DNA from: Sphyrna mokarran
Lineage: Eukaryota
Direction: 5' to 3'
Length of the DNA: 64,000 nucleotides
NCBI GenBank assembly: GCA_024679065.1
Contig: JAGIQG010000029.1
Span: 8,928,001-8,992,000, forward strand
Shown here: piece after piece, positions 25,008 through 51,559 of the stretch
Layout of the letters: each line of letters opens with the position of its first letter
Numbering within the stretch: the first letter of the stretch is position 1
Translations under genes and position numbers: made by a program
Notes under the pieces: model-generated
Seen by the model: only the letters and a program-made list of their open reading frames with translations
What the model was told of the DNA's origin: nothing
The model's database searches: none

Positions 25008-25390
25008 GTGAAGGAGGGGCTCCACAAATATTCCCATCCTCAAATGGTGGAGGGGTCCAGCAATCCAGGCAAACGATAACGCTGAAGCATTTATGAAAAT
25101 CTTAAGCCAGAAATGTTGAGTGGATGATCCATCTCTGCTGGCCCTCTGAGGATCTCAGCATTACAGATGTCAATCTTCAGTTGATTTAATTAACTCCATG
25201 TAATATCAGGAAATGGCTGAAGGCACTAGATATTGCAAAGGCTGTGGACAACATTCCAGCAATAGTACAGAAGACTTGTGCTCCAGAACCAGCTTTGCTC
25301 CCCAAGTTGTTCCAGTGCAGCTACAACAACACCATCTCTTTTGTAATGTGGAAAATTGCCCAGATATGCCCTGTCCACAAAGTGCAGGAC

Positions 25391-26812
25391 TTCCTACAGA
25401 AACTCAGCACACATGGAGCAGTAGAACCAGGGACACTCCTTGTCACAATGGATGTCTCGGCGCTCTACACCAACATCCCCCATGACAATGGTATTGCTGC
25501 AACTGCCTCAGTACTCAATGCCAACAACTGCCAGCTTCCGAATGCAATTTTACAACTCATCCGCTTCATCTTGGACCACAATGTCTTCACCTTCAACAAT
25601 CAGCTTTTCATCCAGACACACGGAACAGCCATGGAGACCAAATTCGCACCTCAGTATGCCAACATCTTCATGCACAGGTTTGAACAAGACTTCTTCACCA
25701 CACGAGATCTCCAACCAAGGTTATATACTATTTACATTGATGACATCTTTTTCCTTTGGACTCATGGTGAACAATCATTGAAACAACTGTATGATGATAT
25801 CAACAAGTTCCATTCCACCATCAGACTCACCATGGACTATTCTCCAGAATCAGTTGCATTCTTGGACACATGCGTCTCCATCAAGGACGGTCACCTCAGC
25901 ACCTCACTGTACTGCAAACCGACAGACAACCTCACAATGCTCCACTTCTCCAGCTTCCACCCTAGACACGTTAAAGAAGCCATTCCCTAGGGACAAGCCC
26001 TCCGTATACACAGAATTTGCTCAGATGAGGGGGATCGTGACAGACACCTCCAGACACTGAAGGATGCCCTTGTGAGAACAGGATATGGCGCTCGACTCAT
26101 CGATCGACAGTTCCGACGTGCCACAGCGATAAACCGCACTGACCTCCTCAAAAGACGAACACGGGACACGGTGGACAGAGTACCCTTTGTTGTCCACTAC
26201 TTCCCCGGAGTGGAGAAGCTACGACATCTTCTCCGGAGTCTTCAACATATCATTGACGATGATCATCTCACTAGGGCCATCCCCACCCCCCCACTTCTTG
26301 CTTTCAGTCAACCGCACAACCTCAAACAGATCATTGTTCGCAGCAAACTACCCAACCTTCAGGAGAACAGTGACCACAATACCATACAACCCTGCCACAG
26401 CAACCTCTGCAAGACATGCCGGATCATAGACGTGGACGACATCATCAAACGTGAGGATACCATTCACCAGGTGCACGGTACATACTCTTGCAAGTCGGCC
26501 AACGTTGTCTACCTAATACGTTGCAAGAAAGGATGTCCCGAAGCATGGTATATTGGGGAGACCATGCAGACACTACGACAGCTGATGAATGAGCATCGCT
26601 CAACAATCACCAGGCAAAACAGTTCCCTTCCTGTGGGCGAACACTTCAGCAGTCATGGGCATTCGGCCTCCGACCTGCGGGTAAACGTTCTTCAAGGGGG
26701 CTTTCGTGATACACGACAGCGCAGAGTCGCTGAACAGAGACTGATAGCCAAGCTCCGCACACATGAGGACGGTCTTAACAGGGATCTTGGCTTCATGACA
26801 CACTATCTGTAA
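25391..26812 (+). pseudogene. PLE reverse transcriptase + GIY-YIG endonuclease (single in-frame stop at 25988-25990)
   Basis: ORFs 25244-25990 and 26072-26812 are in the same frame; motifs TMDVSALYTNI, GTAMxTKFAPQYANIFM, YIDDIF, C-x3-C-KTC, NVVYLIRC...WYIGET, GLN; IP*GQALR is probably IPYGQALR. Confidence 0.92.
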
Positions 26813-46670: not shown

Positions 46671-46987
46671 TCATGAATCGCTTCCTGTCAGATGAGCGAT
46701 TTTAAAAAATATTCAGTCTTGCATTGCAATGGGATTCTGAATTGCAGGTGCTTTGTGCTTTGTATATTGAGAGAGCAAGTGTTAGAGCTTCTTGGTAGCA
46801 TTAAAACTGATAAATCTCCGGGGCCTGATGGCATTTATCCCAGGCTGCTTAGGGAGGTGCGAGGTGAAATTGCTGAGCCTCTGACGCAAATCTTTGTCTC
46901 TTTGGACACAGGTGAGGTCCCAGAGGACTGGAGAATAGCTAATGTTGTACTGTTGTTTAAAAAGGGTAGTAGGGATAACCCTGGAAA

Positions 46988-47010
46988 GCGGGAGTAACTA
47001 TGACTCTCTT
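46988..47010 (+). rRNA. 23-nt fragment of 28S rRNA (R2 target upstream flank)
   Basis: gcgggagtaactatgactctctt matches 28S GGCGGGAGTAACTATGACTCTCTTAAGG^TAGCC. Confidence 0.92.
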
Positions 47011-47124
47011 GTTACTTTAGCTGTGCGTGTCTTGTCAATTCTGCCGCACAGTGAGCTGCGCCTCCTCGTCGGTCCCGCCGGGCAACATCACCGCTACTCC
47101 ATCGTGGTGATGGCTAAAGCAGCT
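46988..47124 (+). ncRNA. HDV-like self-cleaving ribozyme (R2 5' type)
   Basis: P1 GCGGG/CCCGC(C); P2 AGCUGC 47054-47059 / GCAGCU 47119-47124; P3 GCC/GGU; L3 UCCUCGUC; P1.1 CC/GG; GCAA; P4 CAUCACC/GGUGAUG; J4/2 GCUAAA with candidate catalytic C at 47114. Confidence 0.88.
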
Positions 47125-47880
47125 GTCCTAGAATCGACGCGGAGTAGTTGTTTGTCTGGATGCCCGTGTCAGGCTGCAACTACAGACAAGTGGATGGAAG
47201 GATTGGCTAAGCCGAAATAAAGGCGATTGATAGCCAATCCCTGTAACTGTGGGGTCTTCTGGTTTCTACCCACAGTGAGTCAATCCCTTCCGTGGGAGCC
47301 ACCTGGTACCGTCTCCTTGGGCACAGGAGTGGGTATTCCGTGACTGGTGGAGAAACAAATAGCGGGGGCGATGCATGCCAGGTCCACGACCACTACCACA
47401 ACCACTTGGACTGCCATCCAAGAGTGGTATTGATGGAAGGGACGCTGTTGTGTGTTGCATAGCTGTGGTATTCTTGGCATTCTAGACCACAGTGAGTCAG
47501 TCCTTACCGATGGTGCCACAGGGAATTCAGGCCTTCGAGCTGGCAGGCGATGGCCTGAAGGAATCTGACTGGCAGAGAATAGCCAAAATGCTTCTATGCC
47601 TATAAACCCGGTTATTGGTGAAAGAGAAAAAGTTTTGGCTTGACAAGTTCCGGCTTGTCCCGGGGTTAATTGGTGATCCGCTGGCGGATGCGGTCACGCT
47701 TATCTAGGCATCAGAAGCACCCGCGACCCCCTACCCACACAATTCGGTACAGAGGGTAAGACGAACGAACTGTGCCTGGTGTGACACGGAGAAGGGACGT
47801 AGTGCCCCGTCTTGTCTCTGATGATCACTACCAGCGGATGACATCGACACCGATTTCCACCCAGGTGTCGCGGTACGTAT

Positions 47881-48079
47881 GGGCAACACATCAGCCCAGT
47901 GATTAGCACTGCTGGCTGGTCAGCTATAAGGACCCTGGGTCGACCATCGACCTCGGCCTGTGGCTGAGGGAGTTTGCACATTCTCTCCGTGTTTGCGTGG
48001 GTTTTCCCCGGGTACTCCGGTTTCCTCCCACATACCCAAAAACGTGCTAACTCGGTTAATTGGCTAAGACAAAATTGTC
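47881..48079 (+). mobile_element. Diverged tRNA head and V-domain SINE cassette inside the R2-like element
   Basis: gggcaacac...cagtgattagcactgctg...gggagtttgcacattctctccgtgtttgcgtgggttttccccgggtactccggtttcctcccaca; no SINE tail. Confidence 0.85.
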
Positions 48080-48365
48080 ACGTCACCTAATCTGGCTCCC
48101 TTTTGATTTGGCACAAATATATCCCTTAAATTCTAAATTCCCTCCCTCATGTAAGAGAGCCGAGCACCGACCACACAATGCCGTCAAAAGGCTCATTAAA
48201 TTGCCCATAAACATCAGGGATGACAATAAATAGAGCTTTCTATAAAATCTTAGCTTAAATCCCAGCTCATACCCCAGCTAATAACATCTTAGCAGGGAAT
48301 CCAACCGAGCCACAAACTTAGATCAAGTAGACCCCGGCTGGGGCTCTGCTAGTGGTAGACCAAAC

Positions 48366-48419
48366 CGTCGACGAGCGACGTAAAGACTCGGAAAAGGCAC
48401 TCATGCGGGTGTATTAAAA
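48366..48419 (+). other. R2-type 3' terminal pseudoknot plus hairpin (putative R2 protein recognition module)
   Basis: Stem CGUCG/CGACG with loop ACGAG pairing to CUCG (48387-48390), then GAAAAG, hairpin GCACUC/GGGUGU, A tail. Confidence 0.72.
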
Positions 48420-48859
48420 TAGGCTGGTGAGTTTGACGTCAGTGGTAGGGAAGCTGTTGGAGGGGATTCTTAGGATGTATAGGCACTTAGAGCGTTGCGA
48501 TCTGATTAGGGATACGCAGCATGGCTTTAAGGGGAGGTCATGCCTTACAAATCTGGTAGAATTTTTTGAGGAGGTGACGAAGACGGTGGATGAAGGGCGA
48601 GGCGTTGATGTCGTCTATATGGATTTTAGTAAGGCGTTTGACAAAGTCCCTCGTGGGAGGTTAGTTGAGAATGTCAAGGCTAATGAGATACAAGGACAGG
48701 TAGCTAGATGGATAAGTAACTGGCTTGGTAATAGGAGACAGAGAGTAATAGTGGAAGGGTGTTTTTCTAGCTGGAGGTCGGTCACTAGTGGTGTGCCGCA
48801 GGGCTCGGTACTGGGACCTCTTCTATTTGTAATATATATAAATGACTTGGAGTAAGTCC

Positions 48860-49017
48860 CTTTGTATATTGAAAGAGCAAATGTTAGAGCTTCTAGGTAG
48901 CATTAAAACTGATAAATCTCGGGGCTGATGGCATTTATCCCAGGCTGCTTAGGGAGGTGCGAGGTGAAATTGCTGAGCCTCTGACGCAAATCTTTGTCTC
49001 TTGGACACAGGTGAGGT
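48860..49017 (+). repeat. Internal direct duplication of 46758-46918 within the CR1 RT
   Basis: ctttgtatattga...gggaggtgcgaggtgaaattgctgagcctctgacgcaaatctttgtctc...ggacacaggtgaggt occurs twice, differing by a few substitutions and 1-2 nt indels. Confidence 0.95.
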
Positions 49018-51559
49018 GCAAGAGAGTAAGTGGGTGATCAGCAAGTTTGCAGACGATACAAAGATGGCTGGACTTGCGGATAGTGAGGAGCATTGTCAGG
49101 CGATACAGCAGGACATAGGCTGGTAGCTTGGGCAGACAGATGGCAGATGGAATTCAATCCTGATAAATGTGAGGTGATGCATTTTGGGAGAAAGAATGTA
49201 GGGGCGAGGTATATGAGAAAGGGTAGACCTATTAAGAGTATAGAAACGCAGAGGGACCTGGGGGTGCAGGTGAACAAGTCTCTGAAGGTGGCAGAGCAAG
49301 TGGAGAAGAAAGCATATGGTATGTTTTCCTTTATAGGAAGGGGTATAGAGTACAAGAGCTGGCCTTTAACGTTGCAGTTGTATAAAATGTTGGTTAGATC
49401 TCGTTTGGAATACTGCGTCCAGTTCTGGCCGCCTTACTACCGGAAGGATGTAGAGACTCTAGAAGGAGTGCAGAGGAGGTTTACCAGGATGCTGACTGGT
49501 ATGGAAGGTCTGAGTTACGAGGAGAGGTTAGGCAAATTGGGGCTGTTTTCCTTAAAAAGACGTAGACTTAGAGGAGATCTAATAGAGGTGTACAAGATTG
49601 AGGGGTATAGGTAGAGTTAACAGGGTTAAGCTTTTTCCTAGGATGGACTCAAATAGCACGAGGGGTCAAGGGCTTCGGGTGAGGGGGTAAGGTATAATTT
49701 GGATGCTAGAGGGAGTTTTTTCACACAGAGGATGGCGGGGGTATGGAACGCGCTGCCAAGTAAAATGGTGGAGGCAGGTACTCTGGAGTTATTTAAGAGA
49801 TACTTAGATGGGCACATGAACAGAATGGGAATGGAGGGGTATAGAAAACTGATTTAAAATAGGGATCATGAGCCTTGGGAGTCCCTGGGAAGTGTGTGAA
49901 TAGATGATGATATTGATGTATTTGTTTTTATCCTACAGGTACTTTGGTCCACCTTGTTGCCTAATAAGAGGCGTACACGTGATGGGTTGTGAGAGGGCTG
50001 CTCTTGGATTTTTGTTTTTGAGAGTATCTTAGTGCTTCACATCGTTAGTGTACGCTTGACCTGGACCATTTGATGGGCAACATGACAGCTCAGTGACTAT
50101 CTCTGTGCTGTGCAGATACATGGATTTGGGCCTGTGTCTGTGGGAGTTTGTGCATTCTCCCCGTGTTTGCGTGGGTTTTGTCCAAGTGTTCTGGTTTCCT
50201 CCCACATCCCAAAGATGTGCTCTTAGGCTGATTGGCAGAACAAACTCTTCCTAAATTGTCTGAAATTTGGTTTTTAGTCCATGGATGTATAAACATAGAC
50301 AGGGATCACGTGTAGAAGTGAGAACATCAAGGTGGCGGCGTGGGCTTGTTGGGCCGAAGGGCCTGTTTCCCATGCTGTTTTGTTGTTTGTTCTTTGAGAC
50401 TTCCATCTGCAACTAGTACGGTGTCTTTATTTTGCCTTCCGCATGGCTTCAATTTGGAGAGACTTGGGCAAAACTGGACCACCATCGCCACTGGATTTAT
50501 TACTGGCACTGAGCAGTAAAGTGTTGGCACTGAAATGTAAAGATACCTGTTGAAGATTGATGATGACATGGTAGCATCTTCTGAATATTGCCAGTGGTTC
50601 ATTGACGATGGAGCTTTTACCCCAGAGCTATGTGTTTATGTTCTGTAGCTCTTGAGATAGTTTACATGCAAGAATTTCCTTGGAAAACTGCTGTGTTTGT
50701 CTGAAGCAGCATTGCTTGAGAATTAATCAGCATGAAAGTTATCTTTAAAGGCAAAAGTATTATAAATGTTAATGTTAATGCATAGGTGGCATCTAGACAG
50801 GGTAGTGTTTCCATACCAGGTGTGAGATGCATACTCTTTGTCTCCAGGCTAATCACTAGATGTAAATGACATAGCGGGAAGTATTAAATGATGTTGAAGT
50901 TGTTAATGTCTTTGTCACTTTGAGGCTTAATATAATCACATTGATATCTTCCTTCAGTTAATTTATTGTTTTGAAGGTAAAACGTTGGAACCTTTTTTAT
51001 TTCATTTTTCTCGTCAACACACAATAAATTGAAACTGGAGATGGATAAAGCTGCAAACTTGGGTCTCCTGAACGGAACTTGACTTGTTCCTCCAGAGAAA
51101 CTCAGGCTTTTGAACTGTTTGCTTTGTTCTCCTAAATACTCTGCAGTCTCACAGCTTCCATAAAATAATGACTTTTGTTGCTTTGAAAGAGTGTTTTAAT
51201 GAAACTGCAGAGAACTATTATTGGTTTCTACTGCAGCTTTTAAGATTGTAATTCTAATAAGAGTGCATTAGTTTAAATTGGATCATGCATGTAGTGAGTT
51301 CTTGCTATATTTATGGGGTGCAGTGTGTATGTTTATGTATTTAGAACTTAAAATTGAAGCTTTCCTCAACCTCAGAAAAAAGGAAAACAATGCAAATGCA
51401 TCAGAGACTGTTTCTTGGATCTTAACCAGCAAGAATATCGAACATTTTGTACATATTGTACAATTAATTATGTTGTTTGTCTATGTTTCCGTGTTTTGTA
51501 TACTATTTTATAGTACTTGCTTTTTAAGAAACACCAGTATACAAAATATACCAGTATAC

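Follow-up and report, generated by a model that had tools for sequence, protein, structure and literature searches.

The segment at positions 46988-47124 of the window (the whole 64,000-nucleotide stretch of Sphyrna mokarran DNA that was analysed) is the 5' processing module of a non-autonomous passenger of the R2 retrotransposon, a SIDE. The head belongs to a multi-copy, non-coding passenger rather than to a lone R2 5' end; a lone relic is ruled out because the copy is complete and shares the fixed 3' terminus of its family. The whole element spans 1,432 bp (46988..48419, + strand), falls in a short-head subfamily, ends in four A and is matched along its full length, with identical ends, at many loci. 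The copy in the window is most likely an inert passenger lying in a relic of a LINE that we take to be of the CR1 type.

Structure and landing site of the element

All the features described here are on the + strand. The element begins with a leader derived from 28S rRNA (46988..47010), which corresponds to positions -27 to -5 of the R2 site in the 28S sequence from loci L084/L085 of the same genome. As had been proposed from the sequence of the window, the copy thus starts at -27, one base short of the G at -28; A46987 belongs to the CR1 host, and sister copies such as L117 carry the G. Downstream of the ribozyme region there is a non-coding body of about 750 bp (47125..47879), which resembles an older SIDE family and has no match to the DNA or protein of the helper R2 described below, followed by a tail (47880..48419) homologous to the 3' UTR of this helper, with 72% identity over about 550 bp and the same terminus. 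The element contains no ORF of 150 aa, and a tblastn comparison of the R2 protein with it did not retrieve any match. Within the tail, a block at about 47969-48077, which we take to be SINE-like, turns up repeatedly in unrelated flanks. The idea of a separate SINE insertion at 47970-48077 is rejected, since the block is also present in the helper UTR (L084:7620-7720); a similar block occurs at about 50140-50210 of the window.

The host LINE occupies 46758..46987 on the upstream side, where its reverse transcriptase frame breaks at the junction (...DNPG), and the frame resumes at TAGG, on the target side of the 3' junction (48420..48851); both flanks were also recognised in empty sites. Homologues of the empty CR1 site indicate that the insertion in the window caused a 3-bp loss of target and no duplication. 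The possibility that TAG is part of the element is ruled out, because it is host-derived at empty sites. The host LINE is itself rearranged, with pieces 46758-46925 and 48860-49000 duplicated at about 95% identity and flanking the insertion, and the window contains another relic of a reverse transcriptase-bearing repeat at 25190-26812 (+; RVT_1, E 1e-07).

In all, the element has the structure of a SIDE, with an R2-type ribozyme at its 5' end, an R2 3' UTR at the other, no coding capacity and junctions of the R2 type, that is, a precise 3' end, short upstream deletions, no duplication, snap-backs and tandem jumps. The window copy and nearly all the sampled copies lie outside the 28S rDNA target, some of them joined to downstream 28S sequence. 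Rfam comparisons did not identify a tRNA, 5S or 7SL head, and the 5' end consists of 28S sequence and ribozyme, so that the element does not qualify as a Pol III SINE.

The 5' ribozyme and its 28S-derived strand

The pieces of an HDV-like fold listed in the earlier note are all found at the coordinates it had given. The core (47054..47124) comprises P2 (AGCUGC, 47054-59, with GCAGCU, 47119-24), P3 (GCC, 47060-62, with GGU, 47071-73, including one G.U pair), L3 (UCCUCGUC, 47063-70), P1' (CCCGCC, 47074-79), P1.1 (CC, 47064-65, with GG, 47080-81), P4 (47086-94 with 47104-12) and J4/2 (GCUAAA), which contains the predicted catalytic C47114; this C and residues U47063 and G47068 of L3 are all in place. 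P4 has 9 bp, including one G.U pair, rather than the 7 bp previously described, and an 8-bp hairpin in J1/2 (47020-27 with 47045-52; pair probability 0.8-1.0) had been overlooked. The 5' strand of P1 is supplied by the leader (46988-92), whose pairing with P1' is borne out for 5 of 6 bp: the first position in this copy is a host A opposite C, and the paired G at the cleavage position, G1, is absent here and carried by sister copies. A second pairing with the leader, the P1-extension helix (AGUAAC, 46993-98, with GUUACU, 47011-16; pair probability 0.55-0.61), is also present. P1, P1.1, P2, P3 and P4 thereby form a nested double pseudoknot in the correct order, with five of the six P1 pairs. The proposal that the fold needs rRNA sequence holds insofar as P1 uses 28S sequence; it does not hold for flanking rDNA, on which there is no dependence, as the leader is carried within the element.

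Tests on the single sequence gave little. HDV-like models, to which the earlier note had looked for a check, did not provide it: a whole-window scan with Rfam detected no family at its gathering score, and HDV_ribozyme, a model of the viral ribozyme whose match omits the distant 5' strand of P1, scored 22.5 bits on the element (E 1.8), under its gathering cut-off of 50. The folding z-score of -1.5, obtained by pseudoknot-free folding of one sequence, was not significant, and the minimum-energy fold predicted for 46987-47128 contains P1 (5 bp), the P1 extension, the J1/2 hairpin and P4. These tests being weak, the case for a ribozyme rests on relatives of the element.

In an alignment of 22 heads, 14 from the young SIDE family and eight from the older one, pairing was kept in 91.9% of 1,021 cells, versus 31-56% when the partners were slid by 1-3 columns. 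Two-sided, compensatory changes occur in P2 (C-G in 13 heads and U-A in 8), in the J1/2 hairpin, with one change from C-G to U-A between families (13 versus 7 rows), and in P4; this covariation derives from two or three lineages and represents few independent events. Five of the six pairs of the P1 extension are kept in at least 21 of the 22 heads, and the outer A-U pair in 13, so that this second pairing with 28S sequence stands in both the young and the old SIDE families; by eye, it is also kept in the helper R2. The strand complementary to the leader measures 6 nt in the window copy, against about 8 nt in the long-head copies and 9 nt in R2; in the older family it reaches 12-15 nt, sits after the junction (L178-L197) and resembles an inverted copy of the 28S leader. 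The head of the helper R2 has the same P3, L3, P1' and J4/2, and its P2 and P4, of different sequence, still pair by eye. Among 96 scored heads, most of them chosen by a core pattern that inflates figures of intactness, the catalytic C was present in all 96, the core was intact in 87, and 32 had an intact core together with G1 and a full 6-bp P1. Together, these comparisons support the identification of the fold as an HDV-like ribozyme of R2, in which 28S sequence contributes a strand of P1 and the predicted cleavage site is at -28.

In long-head copies (e.g. L031:1315-1567), J1/2 holds repeated words of the 28S target and a second copy of the leader in a hairpin of its own, and the differences between subfamilies in this region mostly preserve pairing.

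It had also been suggested that the window copy might cut a host pre-mRNA transcribed from the + strand. In favour of this are a core with no defect beyond the first P1 pair and the helices of the minimum-energy fold; against it, no host exon was recognised in the 64 kb. Indeed, none of the 137 non-repeat frames of at least 62 aa reached its Pfam cut-off, five sub-threshold matches being treated as chance, and a scan for splice sites pointed to six places in the window, none convincing. Additionally, the copy has an A opposite C at the first position, and P1 mismatches are linked to poor cleavage in the portion of PMC3774820 consulted. The copy differs by 2.1% from the majority of its subfamily, being about as diverged as its sisters, and shows no sign of special conservation in comparison with them. 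We therefore consider a role as a self-cleaving site in host RNA very unlikely.

Dispersal of the SIDE and its helper, and the source of their RNA

Using the first 873 bp of the element as a query against the genome (2.77 Gb, 1,658 contigs), we retrieved 558 candidates, of which 40 were scored, all of them at 89-100%. Exact pattern searches yielded at least 174 heads, at least 268 SIDE tails and at least 68 R2 tails, with no match for the control in each search; the controls for heads and tails were the reversed patterns, and the counts are floors. Of 93 full copies, 82 fall into four clusters of 30, 23, 21 and 8, with a divergence of about 2-5% within clusters (2.3-4.6%) and of 7.9-17.8% between them, and these distance clusters define the SIDE subfamilies. 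The older SIDE family comprises 194 candidates, 40 of them scored, and 20 loci were examined (L178-L197). Its leader, ribozyme and body show 67-76% identity with the window element and its 3' half differs; its 3' junctions are TAG-like and lie outside 28S, except at the query locus. To judge from these alignments, the young family seems to combine the front of an old SIDE with a newer R2 tail.

Several loci (L014, L018, L029 and L050/L051) contain tandem SIDEs, in which the tail is joined to the next leader with no target between; such joins are what template jumping predicts, and the one in L018 connects two subfamilies. A SIDE that ends in the terminal sequence of the helper R2 is found at a contig end (L062:1-100) and is either a recombinant or an assembly join. 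Likewise, a SIDE followed by about 350 nt of 28S lies within a satellite of about 40 bp on two contigs (L063, L070, L071, L075/L176), with one clean and several noisy copies, and is probably in part an assembly artefact.

A full-length R2 was found at L084, with a 3' UTR 72% identical to the last ca. 540 bp of the SIDE and the same ending. Its single ORF codes for three zinc fingers and a Myb domain, both read by alignment, a reverse transcriptase and a restriction-like endonuclease, and its DNA-binding domains look intact. Among the structures in the PDB, vertebrate R2 proteins match it best (E 3e-215); its nearest neighbours among database proteins come from sharks, and a quick protein tree places it with bird and shark R2. 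This protein retrieved 64 matches in the genome, at 82-100% identity and on many chromosome-size contigs, nine of which have stop-free frames of 1,345-1,358 aa. Full-length copies include L198:58-4122, L199:1008-5078 and L200:70-4134, with frames of about 1,355 aa; the intact copies form two subfamilies, 89% identical in protein, whose open frame starts inside the ribozyme region. In one further copy (L091), the 5' part is inverted across an assembly gap. The 72% identity of the SIDE tail with the helper UTR and the unmatched body suggest that the true parent of the SIDE may be an older R2.

The helper is not restricted to the 28S site, although a copy in rDNA is present: its 3' junctions lie outside 28S at 24 of 25 loci, and 16 start with TAG. 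Of 20 R2 5' regions, 15 reach the head; among these, seven begin at -28, and 28S is absent upstream of all 15. The same R2 lineage has also left fragments, 33 matches in all, in bamboo shark (11 gene models, located on contigs between 58 kb and 6.4 Mb in length), catshark and white shark (a 137-Mb sequence), suggesting that its dispersal is likely to be shark-wide. In one bamboo shark gene model (P0014, on a 1.9-Mb contig), a receptor gene carries a fused R2 reverse transcriptase fragment at its end.

The 5' ends of the SIDE copies agree with the cleavage G predicted at -28. Among 97 distinct heads, 90 could be placed, about three of them on an internal duplicate of the leader: 29 start at -28, where the starts peak, 55 stop 1-15 nt short of it and the other six run past it by 1-5 nt. 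Some of the short calls resemble decayed -28 starts, and the extensions can be explained by chance matches. If the RNA cleaves itself just before that G, copies that stop at -28 are to be expected. Short inverted copies of the leader lie immediately upstream of the element at several 5' junctions (L009, L003, L017, L022, L023 and L145) and are consistent with snap-back synthesis.

At the other end, the first five bases downstream of 86 copies (87 minus one tandem junction) were T in 80, A in 74, G in 68, C in 53 and C in 42, with a background for C of 0.18; this signal matches the TAGCC of 28S and then fades. Empty sites, available for 19 of the 87 copies once four self matches were dropped, indicate that the downstream bases are host-derived, and the sole target duplication among them is one 3-bp overlap. 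Four CR1 positions received insertions more than once, from SIDE, R2 or both. Similarity to 28S on the upstream side is modest and uneven, with 4-14 of 25 positions at 12 empty sites, and it reaches 11-14 of 25, including AGG before the nick, at some of the CR1 hot spots. The best-offset score upstream was 9.75 of 20, versus 8.53 in control windows (p 9e-10), a score open to bias because leader remnants could inflate it. We also found dispersed 28S fragments starting only about 10-17 nt upstream of the nick with no insertion (around position 1500 in L065, L072, L073, L077, L080 and L083), and two dispersed 28S fragments with long upstream 28S, both occupied by insertions and with both flanks present (L084 and L119).

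These ends bear on the idea that the family spread by events at the DNA level, such as segmental duplication or capture of rDNA, or that the likeness of the fold is due to chance. The Rfam score under threshold and the duplication of L063, L070, L071 and L075 together with their satellite flanks could be cited for it; nevertheless, nearly every locus has flanks of its own, the ends are exact, the 5' ones with a peak at -28, tails are joined to leaders in tandem, and the empty sites already contradict it, and we give it practically no credit.

A search for the 28S sequence just after the R2 site retrieved 19 places, of which 12 follow a tail of the R2 family (three of these being identical noisy duplicates), six follow a short stretch of upstream 28S and one follows neither; the full-length R2 of L084 is at one of the 19. 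In a small contig (L085), an R2 tail is joined to the last third of 28S and to spacer-like repeats, and R2 therefore also occupies real rDNA. Downstream 28S, 41-357 nt long, is attached to six dispersed copies or pieces (L063, L067, L086, L087, L088 and L089), none of which has 28S upstream; RNA that was transcribed within rDNA and read through would give this pattern. The leader is also nearly constant: between -22 and -7 there are only 10 scattered mismatches in 1,200 positions, none of them subfamily-wide, whereas bodies differ by 8-18%. This is as expected if the leader is read again from 28S in each round; the P1-extension pairing could partly explain it. The assembly holds no intact empty 28S target, so the rDNA array is largely missing from it; we saw no complete rDNA unit with a SIDE in it, and thus infer the existence of SIDE masters residing in rDNA.

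We consider it quite probable that RNA from these rDNA masters cleaves itself at -28 and that the R2 protein inserts it at sites that are only loosely 28S-like. The masters would occupy the R2 site of 28S genes and be co-transcribed with rRNA. P1' would pair with 28S positions -28 to -23 and the RNA would be cut before G-28, thus starting with rRNA sequence; here the fold is taken from covariation and the cleavage site from the copy ends. The R2 protein, with its three zinc fingers, would bind the 3' UTR that helper and passenger share by homology. Besides 28S, the protein would prime reverse transcription at ordinary sites with TAGCC-like downstream bases, a pattern evident in the junctions whose likely cause would be a need for the 3' tail of the read-through RNA to pair with the nicked primer, combined with loose recognition upstream. 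With no upstream 28S to anneal to, the end of the cDNA would be joined imperfectly, and the junctions accordingly display short target deletions, the loss of a few terminal bases or snap-back additions. The window copy lost one base, in addition to 3 bp of target.

The source of the RNA could instead be the dispersed copies themselves, with leader-bearing copies excising themselves from host read-through transcripts and inserting again, as a promoter-less, ribozyme-headed SINE independent of rDNA. One third of the scored heads (32 of 96, in a sample biased to intact cores) retain G1, a full P1 and an intact core, there are four subfamilies with 2-5% internal divergence, and most copies precede TAG-like bases, so that even a dispersed source would yield a tail capable of pairing. 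However, inspection of 98 tails, an approach of low power, revealed no shared 3' flank other than 28S beyond repeat hot spots, six copies or pieces read through into downstream 28S, and the leader lacks subfamily-wide changes. We thus hold dispersed sources to be unlikely and rank rDNA masters well ahead of them.

A different doubt concerns only the priming step and is compatible with masters in rDNA, self-cleavage and binding to the shared 3' UTR. The R2 endonuclease might be strict, its RNP priming at breaks made by others (e.g. by the CR1 endonuclease or through DNA damage), and TAGCC would then arise solely from pairing between RNA and primer. In favour of this, several empty sites resemble 28S only weakly upstream (4-5 of 25), many insertions are in CR1, the DNA-binding domains look intact, and L084 and L119 lie in dispersed 28S fragments with both flanks. 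However, the same CR1 nucleotide is hit again and again, some hot spots share 11-14 of 25 upstream positions and the AGG before the nick with 28S, and target duplications are limited to a single 3-bp case. We give these borrowed breaks a minor but appreciable probability.

More broadly, the shark R2 lineage could long have used both rDNA and the rest of the genome, with leader-bearing passengers that retain a working ribozyme releasing themselves from host read-through and seeding subfamilies, a scenario we find rather doubtful. If it held, a promoter-less, ribozyme-headed class of SINE would exist in a vertebrate, with hundreds of potential self-cleavage sites, and nature would have provided, in the shark R2 protein, a relaxed-target counterpart of the enzymes currently employed to insert genes.

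Comparison with known R2 systems

R2, normally confined to ribosomal RNA genes, is the textbook case of a retrotransposon with strict site specificity, and R2 proteins of lineage A are under development for gene insertion. The shark helper shares with the vertebrate R2 proteins of this lineage (PDB 9dou, 9nl2 and 9nl3) the three zinc fingers, the Myb domain, the reverse transcriptase and the restriction-like endonuclease. Shark R2s such as R2-1_SCa and R2-1_CCar are already catalogued (Hassan et al. 2026, PMC13188248, Table S2), in a survey that annotated R2 by its 28S flanks and reports conserved site specificity; the parts of it consulted describe neither chromosome-wide dispersal nor SIDEs in sharks, unlike what we found here. 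Surveys that require 28S flanks would miss this family.

Non-specific R2s have been described in invertebrates, namely R2NS-1_SMed and R2NS-1_CSi in flatworms (PMC5035012), in cockroach (PMC7650587) and in sponge (PMC13188248). As far as the excerpts of these sources go, the shark R2 shares with them its occurrence outside rDNA and differs in retaining the 28S site, a ribozyme that depends on 28S, a preference for TAGCC-like bases and a family of passengers.

The closest parallel to the passenger is in Drosophila, whose R2 SIDEs join an R2 ribozyme at the 5' end to an R2 3' UTR, have no ORF, are mobilised by R2 and have long persisted beside their helper, according to the passages of PMC3414825 consulted. 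The shark element resembles them in its ribozyme head, its R2 3' UTR tail and its lack of coding capacity; however, in those passages the Drosophila SIDEs are located at the R2 or R1 site of 28S genes, whereas the tail of the shark SIDE has at least 268 matches outside rDNA. Furthermore, cleavage by the Drosophila ribozyme falls at the 5' end of the element itself (PMC3774820, in part), whereas the shark SIDE, a vertebrate element of 1.4 kb, begins with a 28S leader. Our literature search, with Repbase, Dfam and supplement files 13-16 of PMC13188248 outside its scope, did not reveal any vertebrate or dispersed SIDE, nor did the portions of PMC5786205 and PMC5804259 that it covered. These results extend SIDEs from flies to vertebrates.

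For several arthropod R2 ribozymes, cleavage was measured at -28, with P1 taken from 28S (PMC3774820, same excerpt). The shark ribozyme shares with these the 28S P1, the HDV core, the G in L3, the catalytic C and the junction duplications of leader words, and differs from what is described there in that its leader meets no 28S to anneal to at most landing sites and that the P1 extension is kept across families. Because most landing sites offer no 28S to anneal, the copy ends record the 5' end of the RNA directly; ends at non-28S sites would thus expose the -28 start in vivo, which copies in rDNA hide.

As for target choice, the off-target insertions of bird R2 proteins in human cells (PRINT) share little but primer-complementary bases after the nick, and these proteins need pairing between RNA and primer there and leave snap-back 5' junctions, according to the extracts of PMC11371274 consulted. 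Both the bases after the nick and the snap-back junctions are shared by the shark copies. The PRINT off-targets amount to ca. 0.1-1% of events in engineered cells (PMC11371274, same extracts), whereas the shark copies are a natural record fixed over a long period, with hundreds of insertions outside rDNA by a lineage-A R2 with intact-looking DNA-binding domains, and by its passengers. The empty sites and repeat hot spots offer a preference profile for the target bases that R2 needs, and these natural data make it testable whether a 28S 3' tail on the RNA selects the primer. The ribozyme itself is known biology; the dispersed SIDE family and its helper are a departure in location, and together they constitute a natural record of how R2 chooses its insertion sites.
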